From an uncultured Ectothiorhodospiraceae bacterium (GTDB taxonomy: Bacteria; Pseudomonadota; Gammaproteobacteria; GCA-002705445; GCA-002716945), in contig CAYFEQ010000006.1 in the NCBI GenBank assembly GCA_964342155.1, forward strand, positions 2,245 through 66,244: a stretch of DNA of 64,000 bases, in the 5' to 3' direction. The translations under genes were made by a program, and so were the position numbers. The notes below the pieces were generated by a model. It saw only the letters and a list, made by a program, of their open reading frames with translations. It was not told where the DNA came from and ran no database searches. Below are positions 1,644 to 62,834 of this stretch, piece by piece (position 1 is the first letter of the stretch; each line of letters begins with the position of its first letter).

Positions 1644-2616
1644 TTTTAATTATTTCTTTTAAAGATATATCTAAGTTATTTAAAAATTTTTTATTTGGAG
1701 TAATGCTTAATTGAAGTACCCATAATTTTTTATTATACATGCTTAGTTTTACAAAATCTTTTTCAGTTGTAAAAATTGGAAGATTATCATCAAATAATAT
1801 TTCTTTACCTGTATAACTATAATGATCTGGATATGTATGCATTATATATTTTATCTTATGTTCTTCTAATTCAGATTTAATACCTTCCATTGAACCAATT
1901 CCTGCAACAAGATGGATTGTAGTATTAGTGAATTTATCTAGTGATGTGATTTCAGAAGTTTCTGGATAAATAATATTATTGTTTGTCTCTATTGATGGAA
2001 TTCTTGTGTCTTTACTATTATTCCTAACTACAAGGTCAACAGACTTTAATCTTTCTTTAGGTTCACGTAATGGTCCAGCGGGTAAGAGAAACTCATTACC
2101 AAGTTTACGTTTTTGATCAATGACCAGTATCTCTAGATTTCTATGTAACGCATAATGTTGTAGCCCATCATCATGAATAATTAAATCTAGATTATTCTCG
2201 TTTTCCATTTTCTTTGTTGCATTAATCCTATTCCCTCCGGTAATGACTGGTACTTTTGTTTTTTTATAAATTAATATGGCTTCATCACCAAATTTTTCAA
2301 CAGCTGCATCATCTTTTACTAACTGCGGATTTTTTGCCTCAGACTTGTACCCAGATGAAACAATTCCTACTTTTAATCCCTTTTTAAGTAAATAGTTACA
2401 AAGCCAAATAGTTAATGGTGTTTTCCCCGTGCCTCCTACTGTTAGATTACCAATAATAATTATAGGAGTTGCAAATTCATGAGTTTTTAATATTTTTAGT
2501 TTATATAAAGCTTTTCTGATTTTTATTACTAAATAAAATACTAGCGAGAAAGGAGTTAGAATTAGACTTATTAAGTTTAACTTATTATACCAAATTTTAT
2601 TAAGAATCTTTTCCAT
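1633..2616 (-). CDS. lpxK: Tetraacyldisaccharide 4'-kinase
   Basis: P-loop GNLTVGGTGKTP and an N-terminal membrane anchor; 327 aa. It overlaps the kdsB start and follows msbA. Confidence 0.9.
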   Translation of the reverse strand: MEKILNKIWYNKLNLISLILTPFSLVFYLVIKIRKALYKLKILKTHEFATPIIIIGNLTVGGTGKTPLTIWLCNYLLKKGLKVGIVSSGYKSEAKNPQLVKDDAAVEKFGDEAILIYKKTKVPVITGGNRINATKKMENENNLDLIIHDDGLQHYALHRNLEILVIDQKRKLGNEFLLPAGPLREPKERLKSVDLVVRNNSKDTRIPSIETNNNIIYPETSEITSLDKFTNTTIHLVAGIGSMEGIKSELEEHKIKYIMHTYPDHYSYTGKEILFDDNLPIFTTEKDFVKLSMYNKKLWVLQLSITPNKKFLNNLDISLKEIIKNES

Positions 2617-4392
2617 TTAATGTTGCTGAGGGAATTGTATTTTGTGTAAACTAGCATATAAGCCATTTTTATCAAGCAAATCTAGATGTTTGCCTCTTTC
2701 AACAATTTCACCTCTGTCTAAAACTAGTATTTCATCAGCATTTTTTATTGTAGATAATCTATGAGCTATTACTATTGTTGTCCGGTTTTTTAATAATACT
2801 GCGATAGCTTTTTGTATAAATTTTTCAGATTCAGAATCTAAAGAACTTGTCGCTTCATCCAATAATAATATCGGTGATTCTTTTAGTATAGCTCTAGCAA
2901 TTGCAATTCTTTGACGCTGACCTCCAGATAGTAGGACTCCATTATCACCAACAATTGTCTCATATCCATCTGGAAATTTATCAATAAATTCACTAGCATT
3001 TGCACTTATAGAAGCAGATTTTATTTCATCAAAACTTTTATTCTCCAGGGAACCATATGCTATATTATTTCTGATTGTGTCATTAAACAAAGTTAAATCT
3101 TGGCCAACATATGCTATTAAACCTCTTAGATCATTTAAACTATATTGATTTATATTTGATTTATCTATTAATATTTTACCAGAAACAATATCATAAAATC
3201 GTGGTATAAGATTCATTAAAGTTGATTTTCCACTTCCAGATTTCCCAACAATTGCACAAGTAGACCCCTCCTTAACTGTAAAATTAATATTCTTTAAAAC
3301 TAATTGATTATCTCTTTCATAAGAAAAATTTATATCTTTGAAATGTATTTCAGAAAAATTTTTTAAATCAGTATTTTTTTTGTTAATAGTTTTTTGAATA
3401 TTATCCTTTTCAATTGAAGAATCAATCAAGCCAAATATTGATTCACTGGCTGCAATACCTCTTTGTAACACTACATTAATTTCAGCTAGTCTTTTTAGCG
3501 GAGCAAACATAAGTATCATTGCGGTTATAAATGACATAAAAGTGCCAACACTTATTACTCCTAGAAATTCTTGTGAAGTTACTAAGTAAATAATCCCAGA
3601 TAAGAATAAAGCAACTACAAATTGTACTAAAGGAATACTAGTGCCTTGTATAAATGCTAATTTCATATGTTTAGATCTATTATTTTCATTGACTGATTCA
3701 AATGATTTCTTTTCACTTTTTTCGCCACTAAATATTTTTACAACCCTGTGCCCTTGTATTAATTCTTCAACAACATGAGTAATAAAACCCATAGATTTTT
3801 GTATATCTTTACTGACATCACGAAACTTTGTACTCATATATTTAACAAATACAGCTATGACAGGACCTATTATTAACAAACCTAAGGCTAAATGCCAACT
3901 ATGATAGAACATTAAACCGAGCAATCCAATTATGGTCAATCCGTCACGAATAATAACTGTTATTGCTTTGGTTGCAGCCTCAGCTACTTGTTCAGTGTCA
4001 TATGTAAGTTTTGATATTAATTCTCCTGATGATGCTGTGTCATAAGTTTTGGTAGGTGTATGAACAAGCTTATCAAACATTTCATTACGGATATTTTTTA
4101 CTACATTTCTTCCAACCCATGCCATCCCATATGTCGACAAAAAGCCAGCAACACTTCTAGCAAAAAATAAAGCTACTAAAAGCAATGGAAAATTTCTAAT
4201 AGTCTCAGGATCCTTTTCGATAAAGCTACCATCGAGTAATGGTTTAATTAAGGCTGCGAATGCAGTATCGGTAACAGCAAAAATTGACATTGCGAAGATT
4301 GCAAGAAAGAAAACTAGCTTATATTTTAGTGTATAGCCAATTAGTCTCTTATATACATGCAGCCCTTTTTTTGGTTTATCATATTCTTGCAT
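2617..4392 (-). CDS. msbA: Lipid A export ABC transporter (permease and ATPase fused)
   Basis: 591 aa with six TM helices then an ABC domain: Walker A GKSGSGKST, signature LSGGQRQR and Walker B ILLLDEATS. It sits upstream of lpxK. Confidence 0.9.
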   Translation of the reverse strand: MQEYDKPKKGLHVYKRLIGYTLKYKLVFFLAIFAMSIFAVTDTAFAALIKPLLDGSFIEKDPETIRNFPLLLVALFFARSVAGFLSTYGMAWVGRNVVKNIRNEMFDKLVHTPTKTYDTASSGELISKLTYDTEQVAEAATKAITVIIRDGLTIIGLLGLMFYHSWHLALGLLIIGPVIAVFVKYMSTKFRDVSKDIQKSMGFITHVVEELIQGHRVVKIFSGEKSEKKSFESVNENNRSKHMKLAFIQGTSIPLVQFVVALFLSGIIYLVTSQEFLGVISVGTFMSFITAMILMFAPLKRLAEINVVLQRGIAASESIFGLIDSSIEKDNIQKTINKKNTDLKNFSEIHFKDINFSYERDNQLVLKNINFTVKEGSTCAIVGKSGSGKSTLMNLIPRFYDIVSGKILIDKSNINQYSLNDLRGLIAYVGQDLTLFNDTIRNNIAYGSLENKSFDEIKSASISANASEFIDKFPDGYETIVGDNGVLLSGGQRQRIAIARAILKESPILLLDEATSSLDSESEKFIQKAIAVLLKNRTTIVIAHRLSTIKNADEILVLDRGEIVERGKHLDLLDKNGLYASLHKIQFPQQH

Positions 4393-4492: not shown

Positions 4493-5005
4493 ATGAAGAA
4501 ATTTTTCAAGAAATATACACCAGATAAAACAGTAGTAGAAAAATATAAGATTCTAAGATTAATTGGAAGACCTTTGCTACATAATGAACTTTGGCAATTC
4601 TCTAAAAACTCTTTATGTGGAGGTATTGCAGTTGGGTTCTTTTGGGGATGGATGCCGATGCCATTCCAAATGTTACCTGCAGCCATATGTTCAATAATAT
4701 TCCGTGTTAATTTTCCTCTTTCACTTATTGGTGTTTGGATTTCAAATCCAATAACTATGCCTCCTATGATGTATTTTGCTTACTTAGTTGGGAATTGGTT
4801 ATTAAATTTAGATCCACAATATAAGGTGTTTGAACTTAGCATGACGTGGATAGAATCAGCATGGAGTAATATCTGGGAACCATTGTTGGTGGGAAGTTTA
4901 TTGCTAGGAATAATCAGCAGTATTCTTTCATATATGGCTATGTATATTATATGGAAAGCATTTATTTATAATAAAATGAAAGAAAGACAAAATTTCAATA
5001 AATAA
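4493..5005 (+). CDS. DUF2062-family small inner-membrane protein
   Basis: 170 aa; a Gly/Pro-rich TM core (GGIAVGFFWGWMPMPFQ..NPITMPP) resembles DUF2062. It is divergent from the msbA operon and convergent with lolD. Confidence 0.55.
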   Translation: MKKFFKKYTPDKTVVEKYKILRLIGRPLLHNELWQFSKNSLCGGIAVGFFWGWMPMPFQMLPAAICSIIFRVNFPLSLIGVWISNPITMPPMMYFAYLVGNWLLNLDPQYKVFELSMTWIESAWSNIWEPLLVGSLLLGIISSILSYMAMYIIWKAFIYNKMKERQNFNK

Positions 5006-5678
5006 ATTCTTTTAAATTTCCAGATTCTAATGAATATATTTTTTCGAATTTTTTTAATAGCTCTGTATCATGTGTAACCATCAACAGAGAAATATTATTT
5101 TTCTTACAGGTATCAATTAAAAAAGTAATAATTTTATCTGTATTGTTTTTATCTAAATTTCCAGTTGGCTCATCGGCTAATATTAATTTAGGTAAGCTAA
5201 TCATTGCTCTCGCAATAGCTACTCGTTGAGACTCTCCACCAGAAAGTGAAGTAACGTTTGAATTCGTTTTATCTGATAATCCTATCTCATTAAGTAATTT
5301 TTTGACTCTTTCTTCAATAATTTTATTATTTTCTTTTTGTATAAAAAGTGGCATTGCAATATTTTCAAATACACTAAAGTCATCTAATAAATTAAAAAAT
5401 TGAAATACTACACCTAAGTTATTATTTCTAAATTTTGTTCTTTTGTTCAGGCTTAATTGTTGAATGGAAATATCATCAAAAAAAACATTGCCAGAAGACG
5501 GATCATCTAACCCAGATATTATATTAAGCAATGTTGTTTTACCACTGCCAGATGGTCCTGTGAGAGCAACAAGCTCTCCTTCATTTATTTTTAGATTAAC
5601 TTCCTTAAGTACATTATTTCTATCAGAAGTTTTAGTATCTGAATATGACTTGGTAATGCCAATACAATTAATATTCAT
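4995..5678 (-). CDS. lolD: Lipoprotein-releasing system ATP-binding protein
   Basis: Walker A GPSGSGKTT, signature LSGGESQRVAIARA and Walker B LILADEPTGNLD. It is directly downstream of the LolC-type permease. Confidence 0.85.
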   Translation of the reverse strand: MNINCIGITKSYSDTKTSDRNNVLKEVNLKINEGELVALTGPSGSGKTTLLNIISGLDDPSSGNVFFDDISIQQLSLNKRTKFRNNNLGVVFQFFNLLDDFSVFENIAMPLFIQKENNKIIEERVKKLLNEIGLSDKTNSNVTSLSGGESQRVAIARAMISLPKLILADEPTGNLDKNNTDKIITFLIDTCKKNNISLLMVTHDTELLKKFEKIYSLESGNLKEFIY

Positions 5679-6925
5679 TATGAATTATTCCTTAAAATTT
5701 TAGAAGGTAAAATAGTTGATGCTTTTTTAGCTGGATATATAGTTGATAAAACTGATAAAACAAATGAAGATATTCCTATCATCAAAACATCGTTGTAATC
5801 TATAATTGATGGAATTTTATTCAAATGATAGATATCTGCAGGAAGGAGATTTAATCCAAAAATAGATTCAATTACATTCATAATGCTATCTATATTATGA
5901 GACAAAACTAATCCAAAAATAATTCCAAAAATAGTTCCTATCAATCCCAAAATGATACCTTGTAGGACAAATATCTTTAAAATTGCAGATCTATCAGCAC
6001 CAAGGGTCATTAAAATTGCTATATCTTTTTGTTTACTTATAACCAACATTAGTAATGATGACGTAATATTAAATGCAGCAACAACAATAATAAGGATAAG
6101 TATAATAAACATTATTCTTTTTTCATTATTTATTGCATTAAAAAAACTTTGATGAGTTTCTGACCAATCTTGAATAAAAAATGCTTTATTGGATTTTTCA
6201 AAATCTAGTGAGAACCTATAAGATTGCAATGGGTTTTTTAATTTTAATCTTATAGCATCTAAGTATAGATTTTCATTATTTCTTTCTTTAAATATTGATA
6301 AGAAATTATTGAGGTCAATAAAAACAAAAGCATTGTTATACTCATATAAACCAATATCAAAAATACCAGAAACTATATATTTGATTTTATAGGGGTATAG
6401 TTCTTGACTGTCTTTGATTCTAATTTGTGTTAATAATTCAAGCTCATCTCCAATACTTACCAACAGTTTCTGTGCTACGCCAGAACCAATGATGATAGAA
6501 TTATTAAATTTCTTGATATCATCAAAATTACCTAAGATCATATTGTTATCAATATCGCTAACATTTCTTTCTAATTCTGGCTTAATAGCTCTTAAAAAAA
6601 TAGTTTTAGTATTATTCCTTGATGAAAGCAAACCTTCTTTTTGTATATATGGGGAATAACCAATTACTTCTTCTAAATTTTCGATTGTTGAAAAAATTTT
6701 ATTAGATAATTTAAGATTATTGTTCTTAGCATATACTGTTGAATGAGAAGTAAAGCCTAAAATTTTAGATCTCAATTCTTTTTCAAACCCATTCATAACA
6801 GACATGACTGTAATTAAAATACCAACACCAACTATTATGCCTAATATAGAAATTTTTGATATTATAGAAATAAATCCTGTATTTTTCGCAGACGTAAGAA
6901 AACGATATGCTGTCAGAAATTGCAT
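5678..6925 (-). CDS. lolC: Lipoprotein-releasing system permease (LolC/LolE family; the only copy, hence LolF-like)
   Basis: 415 aa; an N-terminal TM helix, a large periplasmic domain and a C-terminal FtsX-like 3-TM bundle. It is followed only by lolD, with no second permease gene. Confidence 0.8.
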   Translation of the reverse strand: MQFLTAYRFLTSAKNTGFISIISKISILGIIVGVGILITVMSVMNGFEKELRSKILGFTSHSTVYAKNNNLKLSNKIFSTIENLEEVIGYSPYIQKEGLLSSRNNTKTIFLRAIKPELERNVSDIDNNMILGNFDDIKKFNNSIIIGSGVAQKLLVSIGDELELLTQIRIKDSQELYPYKIKYIVSGIFDIGLYEYNNAFVFIDLNNFLSIFKERNNENLYLDAIRLKLKNPLQSYRFSLDFEKSNKAFFIQDWSETHQSFFNAINNEKRIMFIILILIIVVAAFNITSSLLMLVISKQKDIAILMTLGADRSAILKIFVLQGIILGLIGTIFGIIFGLVLSHNIDSIMNVIESIFGLNLLPADIYHLNKIPSIIDYNDVLMIGISSFVLSVLSTIYPAKKASTILPSKILRNNS

Positions 6926-6982: not shown

Positions 6983-8038
6983 ATGAAAAAAATTATACCT
7001 GATGAAAATTGTAATATGATCATATTGGTCTGGCCATTCATGTATGAACAAAAACCTTATTGGAATCAGATAATAAATACATTTAAGGAGATGATTTTAA
7101 TTTTATTAGAAAATAAGAACCATGTCTTAATTGTGACCAATAATCCAAAGGAAATTAACGATAAAGCTAATGAAATCTATAAGGAAAACAGATTGGTTGA
7201 TTTAAAAAACAATTTTCATACATTTACCTATGAATGTAATGATATTTGGATTAGGGATTATGGTCCAATTCAAGTACAAAATAATGTCAGGAATGAATAT
7301 AACTTCTATGGATATAATTTTAATGGTTATGGCAATAAGTATGTACATGAAAAGGATAAATCTTTCGCAGATTATTTTTCTAAATACTTTATTAAATACT
7401 CTAAAGATATAAATTATAATCTCTTTGAAAAGCCGTTTGACGATCTAATAATAGAGGGTGGTAATGTGCAATCAAACAAAAATGGACTAATTATTTTTAA
7501 CAGGAAATGCTTATTAAAAAATAATAAAGAAAATTGGAGTTCTATAAAACAGTATTTTGATGATGCAGTAAAAAAATATTATATCAATGACTATCTTTTT
7601 TTTGATTTAGATCCAATAACAGGAGATGATACCAATGGTCATCTTGACAACTTAATTCGTATATATAATGAAAATCTTGTTTTTTATATGAGTAGCAATG
7701 ATATAGAGCATCCAGATTTCTATCTACTTCAAGAATTGAAACAACAATTAGAAGCATTACAAAAAAAAACATCAAACATAAAACAGATTATACCTATAAA
7801 CCATACAACAGATGATATTGTCCTTAATCAACAGAGTATGATGTTGCCATTCTCTTATTTGAACTTCATAATAACTAATAATGTAATAATTTTTCCTGCT
7901 AATAAAAATACCAAAATAGAAAGCTTGGATAAAATATTGCCCTTCTTTAATAATAAAAGAAATTATTTAATAAATGTAGAAGGCTTATTGAACGAACTTG
8001 GTGGATTACATTGCTGTAGTTTAAATATTTGTTATTAA
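6983..8038 (+). CDS. aguA: Agmatine deiminase (porphyromonas-type peptidyl-arginine deiminase fold)
   Basis: Motifs W-x-RD-x-GP (IWIRDYGPI), GHLD and a C-terminal catalytic-Cys region GGLHCCSLN; 351 aa. It lies immediately upstream of aguB. Confidence 0.75.
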   Translation: MKKIIPDENCNMIILVWPFMYEQKPYWNQIINTFKEMILILLENKNHVLIVTNNPKEINDKANEIYKENRLVDLKNNFHTFTYECNDIWIRDYGPIQVQNNVRNEYNFYGYNFNGYGNKYVHEKDKSFADYFSKYFIKYSKDINYNLFEKPFDDLIIEGGNVQSNKNGLIIFNRKCLLKNNKENWSSIKQYFDDAVKKYYINDYLFFDLDPITGDDTNGHLDNLIRIYNENLVFYMSSNDIEHPDFYLLQELKQQLEALQKKTSNIKQIIPINHTTDDIVLNQQSMMLPFSYLNFIITNNVIIFPANKNTKIESLDKILPFFNNKRNYLINVEGLLNELGGLHCCSLNICY

Positions 8039-8048
8039 TGAAATAATT

Positions 8049-8882
8049 ATGAAAAAGAAAATTAATATAGTAATAATACAGAAGAAATTTACTTCTACTA
8101 TAGAAAATAATATATCTGATTTAGATTTACTCATAACAAATAAGAAAATTGCTAAAAACAGTATTCTTGTCCTGCATGAATTAACATTAACTAAATATTT
8201 TTGCATATCAAAAGATAATAATAATTTTAAATATTCAATAAGTAATGATTCTGTCATCTTTAAACAATTAAAGGATATTTGTATTAAAAATAAAGTTTTC
8301 CTTTTAATTAGTTATTTCGAAAGGTTTAAAGGAAAATATTATAATTCATCATCATTGCTTTCTCCTAAAGGGACTGTGATAGGCAAATATCGTAAGAAAA
8401 ATCTACCAGATGAGCAATGTTATCATGAAAAATTTTATTTCAACTCATCTTCTCAGCCCTTTAAAATTTTTGATATTGGGTTATGTAAAATTGGGATTAT
8501 GTTGTGTTGGGATCAATGGTTTTCAAATTCATATTCAAAATTGAATAGTCTAGGTGCAGATATTATCTTTTGCCCTACATCAATAGGATATACCTATATA
8601 AATAATAAAAAAATATCCTTATCTACTGAAAAAGAAATGTGGTTGAAGATTATCCAAGCCAATAGTCTCATGAATAATATCCCTGTCGTAGTAGCGAATA
8701 GAATTGGAAAAGAAACTTCAGGCAATAAAACCATTTCATTCTGGGGATCTAGTTTCATTACTAATTCTGAAGGACAAATAATTGCAAAGGCAGGCAAAAG
8801 TACTTCTTTAGTGAGCGGATCTATAAGTCTTTTAGATAGAAAAAAATCTATAAAAAAATGGGGGTTTTCCTCTGTTGACTAA
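8049..8882 (+). CDS. aguB: N-carbamoylputrescine amidase (nitrilase / C-N hydrolase family)
   Basis: CWDQWF catalytic-Cys motif and a nitrilase-superfamily E-K-C architecture; 277 aa. Confidence 0.8.
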   Translation: MKKKINIVIIQKKFTSTIENNISDLDLLITNKKIAKNSILVLHELTLTKYFCISKDNNNFKYSISNDSVIFKQLKDICIKNKVFLLISYFERFKGKYYNSSSLLSPKGTVIGKYRKKNLPDEQCYHEKFYFNSSSQPFKIFDIGLCKIGIMLCWDQWFSNSYSKLNSLGADIIFCPTSIGYTYINNKKISLSTEKEMWLKIIQANSLMNNIPVVVANRIGKETSGNKTISFWGSSFITNSEGQIIAKAGKSTSLVSGSISLLDRKKSIKKWGFSSVD

Positions 8883-13344: not shown

Positions 13345-14424
13345 TTATTTTTTTTGATCTGAAGTCCAATCTATAGTAGTTGTTGGATATGCTATTGCAG
13401 CACTGTTTTTACTTACAATCTCTGAAATTTTATATAATACGCTTTCTTTAATACTTAAAAATTCTCTCCACTCTTTAGTTATAGTAAATGCATAGATAAA
13501 AAAATCACAAGATGAAGGAGAAAAGCTTTTAAAATAAACAACTGGTTGATGTGTTTGATCAATGTTTTCATGACCAGCTAAATAATCTCTCACTTCGTCA
13601 ACAATCTTTGGAATCTTATCTATGTCATCATAACGAAGTCCTATAACCTCATTAATTCTTCTATTGGTCATTCTTGTAGCATTTTCTACAATAATATTAG
13701 AAAAAGCAGAATTGGGTACATATAGAACATTTTTAGAGAAAGTTCTCACCACTGTAAGTCTCCAACCGATTCTCTCAACAATTCCTTCAATATTCCGATC
13801 AGGTGATTTAATAAATTCACCTACTCGGAAAGGTCTATCAAAGAAAATCATTAGCCCACCAAAAAAATTCGATAATAAATCTTTTGCAGCTAAACCTACG
13901 ACTAATCCACCTACTCCTCCAAAAGCAAGGATTCCTGAAACACTTATTCCAAAATCTTGCATGATAACAAGGATTGTTATTATTATAATAACAGCTTTAA
14001 CAATTCTAAGAGTTATTTCATATGTCTGTCTTATTATTTTTGGATCGTCATCCGAATCAAGGTTATCTAAATATATCTCCTCTTTCTGATAATTATTAGC
14101 TATCCTAATTAATGTCCATGCAAAGATTAGGATTATAAATAAGTGAAATAACTTTTTGAGTGGTATAAATAAGGTAATTTGATAATGTTCATGAAAGATA
14201 TCTGTTATAAGGATAAATGAAACTAAAATAATTAAAAAGCTCAAAGGTGATTTTAAGGATTCAATAATAATATCGTCAACTCTAGTTTTTGTTTTTGATG
14301 AAATCCCTGACAACATATATAATATTTGATTTTTTAAAAAAAGAAAAAGAAATGCAAATATAATAATTGCTGTTATTTGAATTGATATTTCAGTACTAGT
14401 TATTAGTGTAATTAATTCATTCAT
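13345..14424 (-). CDS. Small-conductance mechanosensitive channel family protein
   Basis: 359 aa; an N-terminal multi-TM region then an MscS pore helix with a Gly/Ala-rich stretch (GGVGGLVVGLAAKD..FGG) and a beta domain. Confidence 0.8.
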   Translation of the reverse strand: MNELITLITSTEISIQITAIIIFAFLFLFLKNQILYMLSGISSKTKTRVDDIIIESLKSPLSFLIILVSFILITDIFHEHYQITLFIPLKKLFHLFIILIFAWTLIRIANNYQKEEIYLDNLDSDDDPKIIRQTYEITLRIVKAVIIIITILVIMQDFGISVSGILAFGGVGGLVVGLAAKDLLSNFFGGLMIFFDRPFRVGEFIKSPDRNIEGIVERIGWRLTVVRTFSKNVLYVPNSAFSNIIVENATRMTNRRINEVIGLRYDDIDKIPKIVDEVRDYLAGHENIDQTHQPVVYFKSFSPSSCDFFIYAFTITKEWREFLSIKESVLYKISEIVSKNSAAIAYPTTTIDWTSDQKK

Positions 14425-15457
14425 TCTGTTTAATAAAATTTAAAGCTTCATTATAGTATTCTTCATTTAAATCCTGCTTTATATAATCATCCATTACATA
14501 TAAATCATTACAAAATTCTTTGCAGTAATCAATCAATTCATCAGTAAGATAATGCTTTTTATAGTATTCGTATGATTTCTTTGATGATACAATATTTTTC
14601 TTCATATTCGTAGTTGCTATAACCATTTTACATCCAGCATCTAATGCATTCATTACTTTTTTAGTCTGAGTTTCTTCGTTGAATGCAGCTTTCATTTCTA
14701 TATCATCACTTATAAAAAAAACATTTTCATTTGAAAATATTTCTTGCGATATTTTATTTAACCATACCTTAGAGTATGTCACAATTTCATTATCAATTTT
14801 AGGAAATTTAAGATGGCTCGTCATGATTGGTATAGGTATATTTTTATAAAGCTTAATAAATGGCAATAAGTCTTTTTTAAGTAAATCATCTAAAGTTAAA
14901 TCTGATATACAAGTATCGGTATGACTATCATCTTGTGTAACACCATGCCCGGGGAAATGTTTTAGAACAGGAATTACACCAGCTTGCAGACAACCATCTA
15001 TATAGCTTTTAGCTAGCTTTATGATTATTTCTGGATCTGATCCAAAACACCTGTCTTTAAGTAAGTATTGTTTATTATCTAAAAAATATTGGTTTAAATC
15101 CACAACAGGTGAAAAGTTGATATCTATACCTATACATCTCAATTCATATGCAGATATATAACCGCTATATGTGCTAAGTTTTTCTGAATTTTGTTTTCCA
15201 ATAGTTTCAAAACTTGGGAGTTTAGTAAACCCATCCTTAAACCTTTGTACTCTCCCGCCTTCATGATCTACAGAAATAAAAATTTCATTTTTTATATCTT
15301 TAATTTCTTTAATTAGATTTTTAATTTGTTTATTATCCTTAAAGTTATGCGAAAATAGGATTATTGAGCCGATTAAATCATTCTCGATAAGTTTAGCTTC
15401 TTCCATAGACAGTTTTATGTCATCTATATTTATAATTAAAGGACCAGTGATTTTCAT
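14417..15457 (-). CDS. nagZ: Beta-N-acetylhexosaminidase (GH3, peptidoglycan recycling)
   Basis: 346 aa with the KHFPGHG motif and a GH3 N-terminal domain. Confidence 0.8.
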   Translation of the reverse strand: MKITGPLIINIDDIKLSMEEAKLIENDLIGSIILFSHNFKDNKQIKNLIKEIKDIKNEIFISVDHEGGRVQRFKDGFTKLPSFETIGKQNSEKLSTYSGYISAYELRCIGIDINFSPVVDLNQYFLDNKQYLLKDRCFGSDPEIIIKLAKSYIDGCLQAGVIPVLKHFPGHGVTQDDSHTDTCISDLTLDDLLKKDLLPFIKLYKNIPIPIMTSHLKFPKIDNEIVTYSKVWLNKISQEIFSNENVFFISDDIEMKAAFNEETQTKKVMNALDAGCKMVIATTNMKKNIVSSKKSYEYYKKHYLTDELIDYCKEFCNDLYVMDDYIKQDLNEEYYNEALNFIKQNE

Positions 15458-15933
15458 GAATTCTTTTGTAATAAAGAAACAATACTATAACATGTAAGGC
15501 CAAGGTTTTTACCAATAAAGCCTAATTTTTCGGATGTACTGGCCTTCAAACTAATATTATTAATATCAGTTTTTAAAACTTCTGAAAGATTTCTAGTTAT
15601 TTCTGCTTTGTATTTAGAAATTTTCGGGCTTTCTAAAATTATAGTTATATCAATATTATTAATGTAAAACCCCATACTTTCAGTTTGTTTAACTGCATGA
15701 TCCATTATGATAGAGCTATCAATATTTTCATTCGATTTATTTGTATCTGGAAAATGTTCACCAATATCACCAATAGCAAGCGCTCCATAAACTGCATCAG
15801 CACAAGCATGATATACAATGTCACCATCAGAATGAGCTACAATTGAATAATCAGATGGTATGTCAATACCTCCCAATCGGATTGATGTGCCTTTTTCTAA
15901 TTCATGAGTGTCAAATCCAAATCCTACTCGCAT
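15454..15933 (-). CDS. ispF: 2-C-methyl-D-erythritol 2,4-cyclodiphosphate synthase
   Basis: MRVGFGFDTHEL, conserved His/Asp zinc ligands, 159 aa. It is downstream of ispD. Confidence 0.9.
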   Translation of the reverse strand: MRVGFGFDTHELEKGTSIRLGGIDIPSDYSIVAHSDGDIVYHACADAVYGALAIGDIGEHFPDTNKSNENIDSSIIMDHAVKQTESMGFYINNIDITIILESPKISKYKAEITRNLSEVLKTDINNISLKASTSEKLGFIGKNLGLTCYSIVSLLQKNS

Positions 15934-26410: not shown

Positions 26411-26983
26411 TTAAGTTGACGTCATATCACTAATAGGGCTAAACGATTGTCGATGATAAATAGATGGTCCAAATCTTTCTAATGCCATTTTATGATCTTT
26501 GGTTGGGTAGCCTTTGTTTTTTTCAAAGCTGTAGACTCTAGTTTTCTTATCTAAATACATCATTTCATTATCGCGTATAACTTTTGCAACAATTGAGGCA
26601 GCTGATATCTCCGGGATTATAGAATCACCTTTTACAAAACATTTTGATGAAATATTAGTTTTAGGTGCATATAGTCCATCAATATAAATAACATTCGGCG
26701 TAATAGATAAATTATTAATTGCTCTTTTCATTGATAATAATGTTGCATTATGAATATTTATTTTATCAATCTCAACATTAGTAGAGAGACCAATACCTAT
26801 TGAATATGAGTGCCTAATTATATAGTCTGCCAATTTACATCTTTTATTATGGGATATAGTTTTTGAATCAACCAAGAGTGCTCTATCAATTTTATTACTT
26901 AAGATAATAGCGGCCGACATAACTGGCCCTGCAAGGCATCCACGCCCCACTTCATCAACTCCAGCTAAAAATTTGATTGTCAT
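26411..26983 (-). CDS. rnhB: Ribonuclease HII
   Basis: The MTIKFLAGVDEVGRGCLAGPV start aligns with the canonical RNase HII N-terminus. The track ORF extends 44 aa further upstream to 27115, but that would overlap the divergent gnnA-like start. Confidence 0.85.
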   Translation of the reverse strand: MTIKFLAGVDEVGRGCLAGPVMSAAIILSNKIDRALLVDSKTISHNKRCKLADYIIRHSYSIGIGLSTNVEIDKINIHNATLLSMKRAINNLSITPNVIYIDGLYAPKTNISSKCFVKGDSIIPEISAASIVAKVIRDNEMMYLDKKTRVYSFEKNKGYPTKDHKMALERFGPSIYHRQSFSPISDMTST

Positions 26984-27049
26984 TGGTAATTCACTATATA
27001 ATTGAGCTTTATATAAATATATCAAAATTCTTGAGCCGATGCTGTTAAA

Positions 27050-27976
27050 ATGATCAATAAAAAAATTAATATAGGTATTATAGGGCTTGGGTATCTTGGT
27101 AATTATCATTATCAAAAATTTAATAAAAGCACATTATGTAACATAAAATGGGTCGTAGATAGTGACCAAAGAACATATAAACAAATTAAAAATAAAAACA
27201 TAAAAAAAAGTAAGGATTTTCATAAAATAGTTGATGATATAGATGCAGTATCAATAATTACTCCGACAAAAACACATTTTCATATAGCTAAATTTTTTTT
27301 AATGAATAAGAAGCATGTATTATTGGAAAAACCTATGACTGAAAATACAGCTCAAGCCAACAAATTAATTGAAATAGCAAAAAAAAATAAAGTTATTTTA
27401 CAAATTGGACACCTAGAAAGATTCAATCCTGTAATGAAAAAACTAGAAAATGATATAAAAAAGCCTGTTTTCATAGAAGGTCACAGATTATCTGAATTTA
27501 ACACACGATCTACAGATATAAATGTCATATTTGACTTAATGATTCATGATATAGACATTATTTCTAATATTGTTAAATCTAAAATTAAAAAAGTTTCAGC
27601 ATTTGGAAAAAAAATAATTACATCTTCACCTGATATAGCAAATGTCAGACTAGAATTTGTTGGAGGCTGTATTGTAAATTTAACAGCAAGTAGAATAAGT
27701 CAAAAAAATGAAAGAAAAATTAGGATTTTTGAAAAGAATAAATATTGGTCAGTTGATTTTATGAATCATAAAATTAATAAATATTCTAAAATCATGAAAA
27801 ATAAAAAATTTCTATTTAAAAATGAAAAATTCTCCTTTTTAAAAAAAGATTCTCTTAAATCTGAAATTGATAATTTTTTGAAATCCTGCTCTGGAATAGA
27901 AAAACCTTTAGTTACTGGAATTGATGGCAGAAATGCTATTATTGCTGCTACTAGGATTTCTAAAATTTTAAAATGA
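27050..27976 (+). CDS. gnnA: Gfo/Idh/MocA-family NAD-dependent oxidoreductase (GnnA-like UDP-GlcNAc 3-dehydrogenase)
   Basis: N-terminal Rossmann IGIIGLGYLG, the EKP motif and 308 aa. Its placement with a DegT aminotransferase between rnhB and lpxB next to lpxA matches the described gnnA/gnnB context. Confidence 0.6.
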   Translation: MINKKINIGIIGLGYLGNYHYQKFNKSTLCNIKWVVDSDQRTYKQIKNKNIKKSKDFHKIVDDIDAVSIITPTKTHFHIAKFFLMNKKHVLLEKPMTENTAQANKLIEIAKKNKVILQIGHLERFNPVMKKLENDIKKPVFIEGHRLSEFNTRSTDINVIFDLMIHDIDIISNIVKSKIKKVSAFGKKIITSSPDIANVRLEFVGGCIVNLTASRISQKNERKIRIFEKNKYWSVDFMNHKINKYSKIMKNKKFLFKNEKFSFLKKDSLKSEIDNFLKSCSGIEKPLVTGIDGRNAIIAATRISKILK

Positions 27977-29076
27977 TGAAAAGAAAAATAAAATTTTTTG
28001 ACTTAACTAAACAATATAAAAGTATTTCAAAAGAAATTAATAATAAAGTTATTAAAGTGATACGACAGGGGCAATACATCCTTGGTCCAAATGTTAATGA
28101 TTTTGAAAAAAAATTTTCAAAGAAGTTCTCAACCAAATATGCGGTCACATGTAATTCTGGTACTGATTCTCTAATATTTGCCTTAAAAGCTATAAATATA
28201 AATCAAGGTGATGAAGTGATAACTACTCCTTTCACATATTTCTCTACAGTTGAATCGATTATACAATGTGGAGCTAAACCTGTTTTTGTTGATATCGATC
28301 CATTAACTTTCAATATAAATACAAACTTAATAGAAAATGCTTTAACAAAAAAGACAAAAGCCATTATGCCAGTTCATATATTTGGCCAATCATCAAATAT
28401 GATTCATATAAGAAAAATAGCTAATAAATATAAGCTTAAGGTGATAGAGGATTGCGCACAATCAATTGGCGCAACTTTTAATAAAATTCAAACAGGGACT
28501 TTTGGTGATCTTGGCTGTTTTAGCTTTTTTCCAACAAAGAATTTAGGAGCGATAGGTGATGCTGGAATTACAATAACTTCTAACAAACAATATGCAGAAA
28601 AACTTAAAAAATTACGGAATCATGGAGGAATAGTTAGAAATGAACATGAAATGCTTGGTTATAACAGCAGAATGGATGAAATACAAGCTGCTGTATTGAG
28701 TGCAAAGTTGAAATATTTAGAAATTTTTAATCGTAAGAGAAACCAAATTGCAAAACTATATAGCTCTATGATTCAAAATAAACTTATTAGACTGCCATAT
28801 AAAAATAAAGAGAATTATCATGTATATCATCAATTCACTTTATGTGTTAATAATCGTAGTAGATTCATTAAGCACCTAACAAAATATAAAGTGCCATATG
28901 GGATTTATTATCCTAAACCACTATACAAACAAAAAGCATTAAAAGGGATATGTTCTTCAAAAAAAATGCCAATAACTGAAAATATTACAAAACAATGTAT
29001 ATCAATACCTATTTATCCTGAATTAGATAATGCTTCAATTGAATACATATCAACAACTATAAATAAATATAAATAA
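27973..29076 (+). CDS. gnnB: DegT/DnrJ/EryC1-family PLP-dependent sugar aminotransferase (GnnB-like)
   Basis: 367 aa; a PLP-lysine region FSFFPTKNLGAIGDAG. Start overlaps the stop of the preceding oxidoreductase. Confidence 0.6.
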   Translation: MMKRKIKFFDLTKQYKSISKEINNKVIKVIRQGQYILGPNVNDFEKKFSKKFSTKYAVTCNSGTDSLIFALKAININQGDEVITTPFTYFSTVESIIQCGAKPVFVDIDPLTFNINTNLIENALTKKTKAIMPVHIFGQSSNMIHIRKIANKYKLKVIEDCAQSIGATFNKIQTGTFGDLGCFSFFPTKNLGAIGDAGITITSNKQYAEKLKKLRNHGGIVRNEHEMLGYNSRMDEIQAAVLSAKLKYLEIFNRKRNQIAKLYSSMIQNKLIRLPYKNKENYHVYHQFTLCVNNRSRFIKHLTKYKVPYGIYYPKPLYKQKALKGICSSKKMPITENITKQCISIPIYPELDNASIEYISTTINKYK

Positions 29077-30170
29077 TGGAACAAAAACATATATTTGTAA
29101 TTGCAGGCGAATCTTCGGGTGATCAACATGCTGCAAACTATATTAAAGAACATAAAAAACTAAATCCTAACCATCAATTTTCTGCAATTGGGCAACAAGA
29201 ACTAGCTAAAGTTGGAGTTGATCTAATTTTTAATTCAGAAAGTATATCAGTTGTTGGAATAATGGAAGTAATTTCTAAATATGGAAAAATTAGAAAAGCA
29301 CTAAATATAGCATATAATCATATTGTTGAAAAAAAACCTGACTTAATTGTACTTGTAGATTATGTCGAGTTTAATTTAAAAATTGCTAAGTTTGCTAAAA
29401 GCAAAAATATCCCAGTGCTTTTTTATATTGCACCTCAAGTTTGGGCATGGAGAGAAAAAAGAATAAAAAAGATTATTGGTTTAGTTAATCATCTTGCCGT
29501 AGTTTTTCCATTTGAGGAAAAATTATTTAAAAAATATATGTCTAATGTCACTTATGTTGGTCATCCTCTTGCAGATGATATAAGATTTTCTTTACCACAG
29601 ACAGATACTGACAAAAAACCAATTGATGTTGGAATATTTCCTGGCAGTAGAGACTCAGAAATTAAAAATAATATTAAATTCATGATCGCTGTAGCCCATA
29701 CACTAACAAAGAATATTAAAATTTTTTACTCTAATGAAACATCAAAAAAATTAATTGAGAATTTGTGGCCTGAAAGTATAAAGTACTTGACCAGTGGTAA
29801 AGATACAGATGAAATAAAAAAATGTAAGAAAGCAATAACAGCATCAGGAACAATAACGCTAGAACTTGCATTGCTTAATATCCCGATGATTATTATGTAC
29901 AGATTGTCACCTATAACCTACTTTATTATGAAACAAATGGTTAAATTAAAATACATTGGTCTCGTGAATTTAATTCTTGGAGAAACGCTTGGGTCAAAGC
30001 CAATAGTTCAGGAGTTTGTTCAGCCTCATATAAATGATAATAATGCATCAACAGCTCTAAAAAGCCTTAATTCGCATGATTTTAAAGATAATTATGAACA
30101 AATTAGAAAAATACTTAAACCGGGAGCATCAAAGAATGTGGCTCAGATAGCTGAAAAAATGATTCAATGA
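29076..30170 (+). CDS. lpxB: Lipid-A-disaccharide synthase
   Basis: N-terminus HIFVIAGESSGDQHAANYIK, typical of LpxB; 364 aa. Confidence 0.9.
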   Translation: MEQKHIFVIAGESSGDQHAANYIKEHKKLNPNHQFSAIGQQELAKVGVDLIFNSESISVVGIMEVISKYGKIRKALNIAYNHIVEKKPDLIVLVDYVEFNLKIAKFAKSKNIPVLFYIAPQVWAWREKRIKKIIGLVNHLAVVFPFEEKLFKKYMSNVTYVGHPLADDIRFSLPQTDTDKKPIDVGIFPGSRDSEIKNNIKFMIAVAHTLTKNIKIFYSNETSKKLIENLWPESIKYLTSGKDTDEIKKCKKAITASGTITLELALLNIPMIIMYRLSPITYFIMKQMVKLKYIGLVNLILGETLGSKPIVQEFVQPHINDNNASTALKSLNSHDFKDNYEQIRKILKPGASKNVAQIAEKMIQ

Positions 30171-30941
30171 CTATCTGGTTACTCCTCTACTGCTGTTTTC
30201 AATAAACCTAATGAAATTATCGACTTCAGTGTAAGTTAAATTAAGTTTTTTATATGTCTTCATAGCTTCCTCTCTGCTATGTTTAGATTTTATAAAAATT
30301 TTAAACGCTTTTTCCAGAGCTGAAATAGTATCACTATCAAATCCTTTTCTTTTTAGGCCAGCGCTATTTATTTTGTAGGCTTGGGCATGATTACCAGCTA
30401 CAAGTGTATATGGAGTGACATCCATAGATATTACAGTCCCCAAACCTGAGAAAGCATATTCTCCTAATACACAATACTGATGTACCAGCGTAAAACCACC
30501 TAGTGTTACATAATCAGATATTTCAACATGTCCTGCAAGTGAGGCTGCATTTGAAAAAATACAATTATTATTGACAATACAATCATGAGCAACATGAGTA
30601 TACGCCATAAAAAGATTATGATTTCCGATAGATGTTTTATTTATACCTTTTTCAGTGCCTCTATTTAAAGTACAGTATTCACGGATAGTATTATTATCTC
30701 CAACTATTAAAGTAGATTCTTCACCTACAAATTTAAGATCTTGAGGAATCTCTCCTATAGAAGCAAATTGAAAAATATGATTATTCTTTCCAATAATTGT
30801 ATTTTTTTTTATAACAACATGGCTTTCAATAATTGTACCTTCATCAATTTTTACATCATCATCAATTATTGAATATGGTCCAACTTGAACGCTTGAATCA
30901 ATTTCTGCTTTCGAACTAACAATTGCAGTATTATGTATCAT
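30171..30941 (-). CDS. lpxA: Acyl-ACP--UDP-N-acetylglucosamine (or UDP-GlcNAc3N) O/N-acyltransferase
   Basis: Left-handed beta-helix hexapeptide repeats. The start was moved to MIHNTAIV by alignment with canonical LpxA, giving the usual ATGA overlap with the fabZ stop. Confidence 0.9.
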   Translation of the reverse strand: MIHNTAIVSSKAEIDSSVQVGPYSIIDDDVKIDEGTIIESHVVIKKNTIIGKNNHIFQFASIGEIPQDLKFVGEESTLIVGDNNTIREYCTLNRGTEKGINKTSIGNHNLFMAYTHVAHDCIVNNNCIFSNAASLAGHVEISDYVTLGGFTLVHQYCVLGEYAFSGLGTVISMDVTPYTLVAGNHAQAYKINSAGLKRKGFDSDTISALEKAFKIFIKSKHSREEAMKTYKKLNLTYTEVDNFIRFIENSSRGVTR

Positions 30942-31372
30942 TTTCCTTTTACGGCACCTAAAAGCTCGGCTGTACAAACTATTTCATCATTAACTTTACA
31001 ATTAGCTGAGAATTTATGAACATCTTGTTTGCTTTGAATCAGTACAACTTCGATTATAAGTATGTCTCCAGGAATAACTTGTTTCTTGAATCGTGCTTTA
31101 TCAATTCCTACAAGATAATATAAGAGTTCATTTTCATTTCTTTTATTGCTCTTAAAATCAAGGATAGCTGTAGCTTGAGCCATAGCCTCAAGCAAAAGAA
31201 CTCCTGGGAAAACTGGATAGTCAGGAAAGTGGCCCTGAAAAAATGGCTCATTATTTGATACATTTTTTTGCGCTCTTAAAGATTTATGCTCTACAAAATC
31301 TATAACTTTATCAATTAATAGGAATGGATATCGGTGTGGTAGATAATTTCTAACATCATCATTATTCATCAT
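30938..31372 (-). CDS. fabZ: 3-hydroxyacyl-ACP dehydratase
   Basis: 144 aa hotdog fold with the HFPxxPVxPG motif, in lpxD-fabZ-lpxA order. Confidence 0.9.
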   Translation of the reverse strand: MMNNDDVRNYLPHRYPFLLIDKVIDFVEHKSLRAQKNVSNNEPFFQGHFPDYPVFPGVLLLEAMAQATAILDFKSNKRNENELLYYLVGIDKARFKKQVIPGDILIIEVVLIQSKQDVHKFSANCKVNDEIVCTAELLGAVKGK

Positions 31373-32330
31373 TTTCTCCTTTTTTATCTTTTCGTATTAA
31401 CTTAGCTAGCTCATCAAGTTTTTTAAATCTTGCTTGGTTTTTTCTCCAAGAAGAAGCAGTTTCAACAGTTGTGCCAGAAGCATATTGACCTGGTGTGTCA
31501 ATGGAGCATGTGACCATGGTCATACCATTAATATGAACATCATCTACTATCGTAATATGTCCATTTAAACCAGCGCCGCCGCCAATTGTGCAATTTCTTC
31601 CAATTATTGTGCTTCCTGCTATTCCAACACATGCTGCTATTGCAGTATTTTCACCAATTATGACATTATGTGCTATATGGACTTGGTTATCTATTTTTAC
31701 ATTACTTTTAATAACAGTGCTATCTATAGCAGCTCTATCAATTGTAGTCCCTGAACCAATTTCTACTCCATCTTCAATAATAACATTGCCTATTTGAGAA
31801 ACCTTCTTCCATTGCTTTTCATGCATGACTAGTCCAAAACCATCTGAACCAATAATAGCTCCCGGATGTATGATCACATCATCGCCAATAAATGTGTAAT
31901 CATTAACTACTACATTTGGGTAGATAATAGTATTTTTTCCAATATGAACTCCTTTACCTATAGAAACATTCTCTGCTATCTTAGAACTTGGATCAATCGA
32001 ATTACCTATTGAATCCTGATTATCAAGTAAAGCACTATTTTTTGAATCAACGCAATCATTAACAATTCTAGAAAAAATATATAGCGGTTCATCAGTTATT
32101 ATGCAAGGGACATTAATTTGTTTGGATAGTTTTTCAGTAGCTATTACAGCTGAAAGAATCGAGTCATTGAGATTGTTCAATAGGTGGCTATTAGCTAGAT
32201 ATGAAAGACCATTTTTCTTCATGTTAGCAATACTGCAAATGCAATCTACTTTGATAATGTTAGTAGTATTTACAGTACAGTTGTATTTTTCAGAAAGTTC
32301 CTGAATTGAATATTCTTTATTGAGTTTCAT
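31362..32330 (-). CDS. lpxD: UDP-3-O-(3-hydroxyacyl)glucosamine N-acyltransferase
   Basis: 322 aa; an N-terminal uridine-binding domain plus hexapeptide repeats; downstream of skp. Confidence 0.9.
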   Translation of the reverse strand: MKLNKEYSIQELSEKYNCTVNTTNIIKVDCICSIANMKKNGLSYLANSHLLNNLNDSILSAVIATEKLSKQINVPCIITDEPLYIFSRIVNDCVDSKNSALLDNQDSIGNSIDPSSKIAENVSIGKGVHIGKNTIIYPNVVVNDYTFIGDDVIIHPGAIIGSDGFGLVMHEKQWKKVSQIGNVIIEDGVEIGSGTTIDRAAIDSTVIKSNVKIDNQVHIAHNVIIGENTAIAACVGIAGSTIIGRNCTIGGGAGLNGHITIVDDVHINGMTMVTCSIDTPGQYASGTTVETASSWRKNQARFKKLDELAKLIRKDKKGENDE

Positions 32331-39327: not shown

Positions 39328-39885
39328 TTAGACTTCGCTAATTTCAGTTATCTTTTTAGATATGACTTCTTCGGATGTTTTAATATATTTATCAGTCAAT
39401 TCCTGAATTTCAATTGTATAATCTCTTTCAAAATCTTTTGAAATCTTTTTATCTTTTTCTAAATTACTGATTGAAGTATTAGTATTTCTTCGTATATTTC
39501 TGAGAACAATTTTTGTATTTTCTCCTTCTTTCTTTACAACTTTTATTAATTCCTCTCTTCTATCTTGTGTGAGTGGGGGAATTTTTATATGAATATTCAT
39601 CCCATTAACGGTTGGAGTTAATCCTAATCCAGATTCATGAATGGCTTTTTCAATAGATTGAATAGCGTTTTTATCCCATACATTTAAAGTAATTGTTGAT
39701 CCATCAGTCACACTTATATTAGCTAATTGTTTCAATGGTGTTTTTACATCAAAATAATCAGCTTCTACTTGATCTAACATGCTAGGGTTAGGTCTTCCTG
39801 CTCTGATCTTCCCTAATGATTGATGTAATGAATCAATAGATTTAATCATCAAATTATCAGTTTCTTTTTTTATTTCTTCAAACAT
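39328..39885 (-). CDS. frr: Ribosome recycling factor
   Basis: 185 aa, conserved RRF sequence (..IRAGRPNPSMLD..). Confidence 0.9.
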   Translation of the reverse strand: MFEEIKKETDNLMIKSIDSLHQSLGKIRAGRPNPSMLDQVEADYFDVKTPLKQLANISVTDGSTITLNVWDKNAIQSIEKAIHESGLGLTPTVNGMNIHIKIPPLTQDRREELIKVVKKEGENTKIVLRNIRRNTNTSISNLEKDKKISKDFERDYTIEIQELTDKYIKTSEEVISKKITEISEV

Positions 39886-39965
39886 AATTATAGAGTTTTA
39901 AATATCTATTTTATCATCATAGAGTATATTTTTTAAGTTTTTATAGAGGATATAATAATTAGGTA

Positions 39966-40832
39966 TTACTTAATTTGGTTATAGACTTCTTGTGCAAAAT
40001 CATCCTTTCCTTTATCAATCCCTTCTCCCAGTTGATAACGAACAAAACTGACTATTTTATTATTTTTTATTATTTTTTTTAAGGTTGTAGTATCGTCTTT
40101 TATAAAAGGCTGATTAAGGAGAGTATTACTGTCTAAAAATTTTTTAATTTTACCATCCAAAATATTCCGCTTTATGTCATCTTTTTTGTTTATTTTATCC
40201 AGCTCAGATTTATAAACTTCTTTCTCTGTAGCCAAGATTTTTTTATCCACAGAGTCATGATCAATAGCTATTGGGTTTGATGCTACAATTTGCATTGAAA
40301 TATCTTTACAAAGACTTTCATCTTTTTTTTCTAAAACAACAACAGCACCAATTTTTCCATTATGTACATATCCCCCAATAAAATTATTTGTTTGTTCTTG
40401 CAATATATACCTTCTTATACGTATATTTTCACCAAGTTTAGTTATTATATTTTTTCTTGTATTTTCTATATCTTCATATGTATCTGAGCTCTTATCTATA
40501 TTAAACTCTTTAAAATTAGGAATATTAGATGATAATATTTTTGAAGCTATAGTTTCTACAAAACCCCTAAAATCATCACTCCGGGCTACAAAATCTGTTT
40601 CTGAGTTTACCTCAATTAAAAGAAATTTACTTTTATTTACATGTAAATGAATTAATCCTTCAGCTGCAGTTCGAGCAGATTTTTTATCTGCTTTTACACC
40701 TTCTTCTGATCTCATCAGCTTGATGGCCTTATCTAAATCACCTTCTGCTTTTTTTAAATACTTTTTACAGTCTAAAATCCCAGCTCCAGTTATATCCCTA
40801 AGATCTCTCAAAAGATTTAAATCTTCTTTCAT
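39966..40832 (-). CDS. tsf: Elongation factor Ts
   Basis: 288 aa; the N-terminal UBA-like LRDITGAGILDCKKYL and a dimerisation core. Confidence 0.9.
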   Translation of the reverse strand: MKEDLNLLRDLRDITGAGILDCKKYLKKAEGDLDKAIKLMRSEEGVKADKKSARTAAEGLIHLHVNKSKFLLIEVNSETDFVARSDDFRGFVETIASKILSSNIPNFKEFNIDKSSDTYEDIENTRKNIITKLGENIRIRRYILQEQTNNFIGGYVHNGKIGAVVVLEKKDESLCKDISMQIVASNPIAIDHDSVDKKILATEKEVYKSELDKINKKDDIKRNILDGKIKKFLDSNTLLNQPFIKDDTTTLKKIIKNNKIVSFVRYQLGEGIDKGKDDFAQEVYNQIK

Positions 40833-62205: not shown

Positions 62206-62232
62206 GCTATGATAATTATGTTTGATAGAATT

Positions 62233-62832: not shown

Positions 62833-62834
62833 AT

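Follow-up and report, generated by a model that had tools for sequence, protein, structure and literature searches.

A three-gene block, gnnA-gnnB-lpxB, in the genome of an uncultured marine gammaproteobacterium probably encodes a GnnA/GnnB route feeding lipid A that contains 2,3-diamino-2,3-dideoxyglucose (GlcN3N), in a layout that is old and shared with relatives. The block lies on the plus strand of a 64,000-nucleotide (nt) stretch of DNA, here called the window (29% GC; contig CAYFEQ010000006.1, positions 2,245 to 66,244, from an uncultured Ectothiorhodospiraceae bacterium). The GnnA protein of the window has exact matches on Tara and other marine metagenome contigs. The reading is carried by the identities of the genes, by their operon structure, by a specific likeness of the first protein to a solved GnnA, and by the conserved linkage of the pair to lipid A genes.

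The three genes form a translationally coupled operon. The first, gnnA (27050-27976, 308 amino acids (aa)), encodes a predicted nicotinamide adenine dinucleotide (NAD)-dependent dehydrogenase of UDP-N-acetylglucosamine (UDP-GlcNAc) acting at carbon 3 (Pfam GFO_IDH_MocA plus C3 domain, E = 6e-26). It is followed by gnnB (27973-29076, 367 aa), encoding a predicted pyridoxal phosphate (PLP)-dependent UDP-3-keto-GlcNAc 3-aminotransferase (Pfam DegT_DnrJ_EryC1, E = 1.7e-113, 380 bits), and by lpxB (29076-30170, 364 aa), encoding lipid A disaccharide synthase (Pfam LpxB, 267 bits; TIGR00215, 229 bits against a cutoff of 190). The gnnA and gnnB reading frames overlap in the tetranucleotide ATGA (27973-27976), and gnnB and lpxB in TAATG (29074-29078), where lpxB and the gnnB stop codon share 1 nt. 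On the map of open reading frames (ORFs) the trio stands between extended stretches of minus-strand genes, with RNase HII, DnaE, AccA and TilS encoded on the left and LpxA, FabZ, LpxD, Skp, BamA and RseP on the right (Pfam and NCBIfam). Directly after lpxB come lpxA (30171-30941, minus strand, 256 aa; predicted acyl-ACP:UDP-GlcNAc(3N) acyltransferase, where ACP is acyl carrier protein; NF003657, 342 bits) and, upstream of it in the same minus-strand operon, fabZ and lpxD (30938-32330; Pfam and NCBIfam). An earlier note on this DNA, made from the letters alone, had described a plus-strand oxidoreductase and aminotransferase pair that overlaps by a start and a stop codon and runs into lpxB, with an lpxA-fabZ-lpxD block directly behind it. 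The ORF map and the domain assignments agree with that description in coordinates, strands and gene identities.

The dehydrogenase and aminotransferase pair

Sequence and modelled fold both indicate that the window oxidoreductase is clearly GnnA-type, unlike WbpB. Its Pfam domains (PF01408 and PF22725) make up a two-domain fold whose N-terminal part is the Rossmann NAD site. The best solved relative by sequence is 7BVJ/7BVK, the GnnA of Acidithiobacillus ferrooxidans (E = 3.9e-49, 171 bits), and the next match in the PDB stands at 5e-21. No WbpB or WlbA structure appeared among the 60 best PDB sequence matches, even though matches up to E = 10 were admitted. AlphaFold, given 30 homologues, produced a model with a mean predicted local distance difference test score (pLDDT) of 91.8. 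When this model was compared with the PDB by Foldseek, ranks 1-5 were all A. ferrooxidans GnnA (template modelling (TM) score 0.90-0.92, root-mean-square deviation ~2 Å, 31% identity), with E-values eight orders of magnitude better than those of the next protein. The earlier note's preference for a GnnA-like over a WbpB-like oxidoreductase is thus borne out, with 7BVJ on top by sequence and by fold and WbpB/WlbA absent from the 60 best sequence matches. In NCBIfam the oxidoreductase scores highest with the model for archaeal UDP-GlcNAc 3-dehydrogenase, whose cutoff of 450 bits it misses with 171.6 bits.

The residues expected of such an enzyme are conserved throughout. The GxGxxG motif (G12/G14/G17), E93-K94-P95, D162 and H166 are invariant in 82/82 aligned sequences, including 7BVJ; in this family the EKP and D-x3-H motifs have catalytic roles. 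A. ferrooxidans GnnA oxidises UDP-GlcNAc to UDP-3-oxo-GlcNAc (7BVJ/7BVK; Manissorn et al. 2020), and GnnA and GnnB jointly produce the GlcN3N precursor, as described in the literature. The window protein is predicted to carry out the same NAD+-dependent oxidation at C3 of UDP-GlcNAc. Similarity to the A. ferrooxidans system extends beyond the superposable fold and common motifs, since in both cases a Gfo/Idh/MocA dehydrogenase followed by a DegT aminotransferase lies among lpxA and lpxB. The two systems differ in that the window GnnA is only 31% identical to its counterpart, in the AT-rich, uncultured marine host (29% GC), and in orientation, lpxA and rnhB being encoded on the other strand from the window gnnA-gnnB-lpxB block. 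In A. ferrooxidans gnnA and gnnB are reportedly collinear between lpxA and lpxB.

By its sequence, the second protein is a predicted sugar C3-aminotransferase and not specifically WbpE. Its PDB matches are 7B0D, deposited under a generic name (342 bits), 7N63, a putative aminotransferase (291 bits), QdtB (3FRK, 275 bits) and WbpE (3NYU, 270 bits, 39% identity). The literature gave nothing relevant on the identity of 7B0D, which we keep under its deposited name. The PLP lysine, K189, aligns to the lysine of WbpE and is invariant in 45/45 sequences; D160, Q163 and S184 are likewise invariant. The GnnB consensus and WbpE disagree at 54 positions, of which 27 carry the GnnB residue and 6 the WbpE residue in the window protein. 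These counts set the protein apart from WbpE and go no further. We rejected this residue-level discrimination as proof of GnnB, because QdtB (32 GnnB, 10 WbpE) and 7B0D (35 and 7, respectively) give like counts.

The identity of GnnB therefore comes mainly from gene context, as sequence alone gives no clean split from WbpE or QdtB. We assign the aminotransferase as GnnB because its gene overlaps by start and stop codons with that of a bona fide GnnA, because it lies directly upstream of lpxB, and because the window holds no WbpA-, WbpD- or WbpI-type partners among its annotated ORFs. Such partners belong to the pathway of WbpB/WbpE in Pseudomonas aeruginosa, which, like WlbA/WlbC of Bordetella, performs the same two-step C3 chemistry on a UDP-2-acetamido sugar, here the 3-oxidation and 3-transamination of UDP-GlcNAcA for O-antigen (the UDP-GlcNAc3NAcA pathway). 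The window pair resembles these systems in the aminotransferase, which has the PLP lysine in common with WbpE, and departs from them in a dehydrogenase without specific similarity to WbpB/WlbA and in the lack of wbpA/wbpD/wbpI-type neighbours.

Gene order and the spacer shared with rnhB

We compared gene neighbourhoods across the 80 closest GTDB loci of the window GnnA. In 66/80 loci lpxA, lpxB or rnhB adjoins the gnnA homologue, and gnnB lies directly downstream of it in 41/80. Two layouts recur. A collinear order, (bamA-)lpxD-fabZ-lpxA-gnnA-(gnnB)-lpxB, is found in 26/80 loci, in Desulfobacterota and Geobacter. The order of the window, with rnhB pointing left, gnnA, gnnB and lpxB pointing right, and lpxA and fabZ pointing left again, is found in 18/80 loci, all from Gammaproteobacteria. 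These include Thioalkalivibrio (L085), Simiduia (L060), Thiohalomonadaceae (L044), Chromatiales (L071) and several metagenome-assembled genomes, and the layout is seen further in L007, L017, L039, L076 and L083. Marine relatives whose GnnA is 82% (L091/L092) or 63% (L088-L090) identical to that of the window show the same layout down to the length of the rnhB-gnnA spacer (66 nt) and the lpxB/lpxA junction (0 nt).

Escherichia coli K-12 provides the reference for the orientation of the block. There, rpsB...bamA-skp-lpxD-fabZ-lpxA-lpxB-rnhB-dnaE-accA...tilS all lie on one strand, so the opposite orientation of the window trio is a real difference. From rpsB to tilS the window keeps this gene set and its succession, with gnnA and gnnB added, without pyrH between tsf and frr, and with gnnA-gnnB-lpxB inverted, so that the block diverges from rnhB and meets lpxA at a 0-nt convergent junction. 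One inversion of the gnnA-gnnB-lpxB block accounts exactly for this order. A search for inverted repeats flanking the block returned only chance-level AT-rich matches, and the strand skews of the block (GC and AT) fit the direction in which it is transcribed. The inverted layout is old and widely inherited among Gammaproteobacteria, and does not reflect a recent event in the window genome. The change of gene order has no demonstrated functional consequence.

The inversion leaves gnnA facing rnhB (26411-26983, minus strand, 190 aa; RNase HII by Pfam and NCBIfam), the first gene of the divergent rnhB-dnaE-accA-tilS block. An alternative 234-aa rnhB ORF that overlaps gnnA was rejected, since it arises only when the earliest possible start is used, and identical metagenome contigs are called with 190 aa. 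Because rnhB is 190 aa long, a divergent spacer of 66 nt (26984-27049) precedes gnnA. The spacer is exactly 66 nt in the marine relatives as well (positions 5935-6000 in both L088/L089 and L091/L092). It is 95.5% identical to that of the 82%-identity relative, where flanking genes are 78-84.5% identical, and 75.8% identical to that of the 63%-identity relative, where flanking genes are 64-70% identical. Promoter-like elements occur on both strands, TTGATT-18-TATAAT on the gnnA side (plus strand, 26973-27002) and TTGATA-16-AATTAT on the rnhB side (minus strand, 27025-26998), and their -10-like hexamers overlap on opposite strands. Conservation of the spacer suggests that it acts as a putative divergent promoter region.

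At the other end of the block the stop codons of the convergent lpxB and lpxA genes abut (lpxB ends at 30170 and the lpxA stop starts at 30171), with 0 nt between them. We searched for a terminator-like hairpin between lpxB and lpxA and found none; abutting stops without a terminator imply that the convergent transcripts overlap. The same junction (window 30168-30173) is kept in relatives, at 9157/9158 in L088 and 9121/9122 in L091.

LpxA, the predicted lipid A and rival readings

From these observations we infer the promoter, the enzyme activities and the lipid A chemistry of the window locus as follows. The gnnA-gnnB-lpxB block would be transcribed from a promoter in the 66-nt spacer shared divergently with rnhB. 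GnnA would oxidise the 3-hydroxyl of UDP-GlcNAc with NAD+, and GnnB, using PLP and an amino donor, would transaminate the resulting 3-keto sugar, yielding UDP-2-acetamido-3-amino-2,3-dideoxyglucose (UDP-GlcNAc3N). This sugar nucleotide would be N-acylated by the single neighbouring LpxA, and the ordinary Raetz enzymes would then complete a lipid A whose backbone consists, at least in part, of GlcN3N with amide-linked acyl chains at position 3. Lipid A with GlcN3N is thus the likely, predicted chemistry of the window lineage.

The window LpxA reads as an ordinary gammaproteobacterial LpxA. Its closest relatives are those of P. aeruginosa (252 bits) and E. coli (246 bits), ahead of Leptospira (203 bits) and Campylobacter jejuni (182 bits). 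All catalytic residues are kept: H116/H119/H138/H154 and Q67-D-L-K70 correspond to E. coli H122/H125/H144/H160 and Q73-K76. An initial LpxA length of 268 aa was corrected to 256 aa. A comparison of residues between gnnA-linked and other LpxA proteins established no signature of UDP-GlcNAc3N selectivity. Pro-Gln at E. coli LpxA positions 72-73 is present in 40/40 gnnA-linked LpxA proteins, where E. coli has Asn-Gln and P. aeruginosa Thr-Pro. We rejected it as a selectivity signature because it is also found in 124/150 diverse LpxA representatives and in Burkholderia LpxA (4EQY). The selectivity of Leptospira LpxA is said to arise from the orientation of the Q68 backbone carbonyl, with no side-chain change. 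Finally, the hydrocarbon-ruler position (G173 in E. coli, M169 in P. aeruginosa) is occupied by L167, a residue found there in 1 of the 150 diverse representatives (Gly in 89, Met in 9). By analogy with P. aeruginosa M169, Leu167 hints at short 3-hydroxyacyl chains, of about C10-C12.

Several observations weigh against a GnnA/GnnB route into lipid A. A hidden Markov model (HMM) trained on 38 lpx-linked GnnB proteins, none of them a biochemically proven GnnB sequence, gives the window aminotransferase 460 bits, a divergent score next to the at least 612 bits of the training members. The same model gives 406 bits to both WbpE and QdtB and 485 bits to 7B0D, an unrelated entry that thus outscores the window protein, and neighbour joining places WbpE within the lpx-linked GnnB proteins. 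LpxA lacks any distinguishing feature and is nearest to LpxA proteins of the glucosamine (GlcN) type. The promoter-like hexamers are no commoner in this AT-rich DNA than in shuffled sequence. Furthermore, in 24/80 loci lpxB follows the gnnA homologue after 15-264 nt, and the gap holds no aminotransferase gene. Because gnnA-lpxB linkage without gnnB occurs in many lineages, linkage alone is no proof of GlcN3N lipid A. Loci of this kind include L012, L020, L045, L051, L061, L064 (a Coxiella endosymbiont) and L075 (Legionellaceae), among others; either gnnB lies elsewhere in these genomes or the oxidoreductase has another role.

Two further points of the earlier note fare unevenly against this evidence. 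That a GnnA/GnnB-type pair sits inside the lipid A cluster is supported by the type of the dehydrogenase and by context, and qualified by an aminotransferase that sequence does not separate from WbpE/QdtB. As to whether LpxA carries residue changes linked to UDP-GlcNAc3N selectivity, a check that the note suggested, no signature could be established; the catalytic residues are identical to those of E. coli.

If the pair is a true GnnA/GnnB, LpxA might use both UDP-GlcNAc and UDP-GlcNAc3N, giving hybrid (GlcN3N-GlcN) or mixed lipid A and no uniform four-amide species. We consider this outcome quite possible, if on balance doubtful. It is favoured by the standard gammaproteobacterial LpxA with its E. 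coli-like active-site residues; E. coli LpxA reportedly takes both substrates in vitro, and the lipid A of A. ferrooxidans is said to be mixed. Against it, the window cluster has only one lpxA, where Capnocytophaga with its hybrid backbone has two and Simiduia has two in tandem; the ratio of GlcN3N to GlcN is not readable from sequence. Hybrid GlcN3N-GlcN backbones are described in the literature for C. jejuni and Capnocytophaga canimorsus, which, like the window, have gnnA/gnnB orthologues, and Capnocytophaga has two LpxA proteins. Inactivation of gnnA/gnnB in C. jejuni altered TLR4 activation and sensitivity to antimicrobial peptides (literature). The window host is free-living, so such host-interaction consequences are not obviously transferable. 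The four or more acyl amides and the effect on TLR4 put forward in the earlier note are extrapolations from other organisms, in the case of TLR4 from pathogens, and the relevance of TLR4 to a planktonic marine bacterium is doubtful.

Divergent or second lpxA-type genes accompany gnnA in other lineages. In Methylococcales (L025, L036, L053 and L078) gnnA is preceded by a divergent lpxA-like gene, its immediate neighbour in L025, L053 and L078. Its products are 35-39% identical to the window LpxA and form their own clade in the LpxA tree, where an lpxA-like gene on the opposite strand in L059 groups with them; this gene is probably a dedicated paralogue. Simiduia aestuariiviva (L060) carries lpxA genes in tandem (14276-15046 and 15057-15827). 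The copy next to fabZ is Pseudomonas-like, with the motif ...ATPDLKY, and the other, with an LpxL-like acyltransferase behind it, is of the gnnAB-associated type (motif ...EEPQDLSY). By analogy, the pair may be a dual-substrate arrangement like lpxA/lpxA' of Capnocytophaga.

The tandem genes of Simiduia also bear on how the layout arose. A pre-formed module, with gnnA, gnnB and lpxB facing lpxA, could have been acquired and have replaced native lpxA and lpxB, with no inversion in place. Simiduia, with a Pseudomonas-type lpxA by fabZ and a second, gnnAB-associated-type lpxA alongside gnnA-gnnB-lpxB, speaks for such an acquisition, and the GnnA, LpxB and LpxA trees intermix gammaproteobacterial and Geobacter sequences. 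However, the trees come from neighbour joining and carry no support values, only one lpxA lies in the window, and inversion of one three-gene block yields the order exactly. We regard acquisition of a module as unlikely, though it deserves consideration.

A different function for the pair is far less credible. The UDP-GlcNAc3N that it makes, or a sugar derived from it, could serve a surface glycan instead of lipid A, for example as a di-N-acetylated sugar of an O-antigen or capsule, as in the WbpB/WbpE or the archaeal acetamido-sugar pathway, leaving lipid A of the GlcN type. The DegT protein, not cleanly split from WbpE/QdtB, would fit, as would the archaeal UDP-GlcNAc 3-dehydrogenase model that heads the NCBIfam matches of the oxidoreductase, though below cutoff. 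Yet the oxidoreductase is GnnA-like and does not detectably resemble WbpB/WlbA in any specific way, translational coupling ties the pair to lpxB within a lipid A cluster, and the linkage of the pair to lpx genes is conserved across phyla. The 64-kb window yielded no partner of the 6-dehydrogenase, N-acetyltransferase or 2-epimerase type. We consider this explanation very improbable and retain the GnnA/GnnB route into lipid A. Finally, the local inversion of about 3.1 kb proposed in the earlier note holds as an inversion relative to the collinear order of E. coli and of Geobacter/Desulfobacterota but not as a local one, and a recent, lineage-specific event is scarcely believable given the same layout, 66-nt spacer and 0-nt junction at 82% and 63% GnnA identity, the same order in at least five named gammaproteobacterial groups, the lack of detected flanking inverted repeats, and a GC/AT skew that fits the present direction of transcription.

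The GnnA/GnnB enzymes, their pathway and their placement among lpx genes have been described from 2004 onward. What is new here is modest: an abundant uncultured marine host lineage, an ancient and widespread inverted layout, and a conserved bidirectional spacer. Homologues of the window GnnA occur in many metagenome protein clusters at 61-82% identity, including AT-rich marine plankton lineages. One tentative possibility is that many environmental Gammaproteobacteria, very abundant plankton lineages among them, have carried the inverted module and the conserved 66-nt control region between it and rnhB-dnaE since ancient times, that amide-linked GlcN3N lipid A is a major and overlooked lipopolysaccharide (LPS) type of the surface ocean, and that overlapping divergent promoters tie its synthesis transcriptionally to the replication genes rnhB and dnaE. 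If the GnnA/GnnB reading is true, widespread uncultured marine Gammaproteobacteria would carry amide- instead of ester-linked chains at lipid A position 3. Such lipid A would be chemically more robust and would make for a distinct environmental LPS, with a bearing on lipid biomarkers, on enzymatic LPS turnover in seawater and on marine endotoxin assays. What the locus offers in practice is correct annotation and a prediction open to test; it implies no new mechanism.

Other genes of the window

Further genes for lipid A and LPS lie elsewhere in the window, namely lpxK (1633-2616), msbA, kdsA, kdsB and a candidate lpxH (62835-63578). The kdsB-lpxK-msbA cluster occupies 924-4392 on the minus strand and is followed by lolD/lolC-like ABC genes (4995-6925). 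The lpxH candidate encodes a calcineurin-like phosphoesterase (Pfam) and stands at the end of a run (60871-63578) with cysS on the minus strand and ppiB on the plus strand. This order matches the cysS-ppiB-lpxH neighbourhood of E. coli, and the phosphoesterase is probably LpxH.

The gap between tsf and frr is only 80 nt (39885-39966), and pyrH, which lies between these genes in E. coli, is missing from the cluster. An Rfam scan of the window returned tRNAs only. Between tRNA-Leu and a tRNA-His/Arg/Pro cluster lies a 557-aa ORF (58864-60537, minus strand) with no Pfam match at E<=1e-4. On the plus strand at 6983-8882, an agmatine deiminase-like gene (PAD_porph) adjoins a carbon-nitrogen hydrolase gene, and the two look like an agmatine-to-putrescine route.

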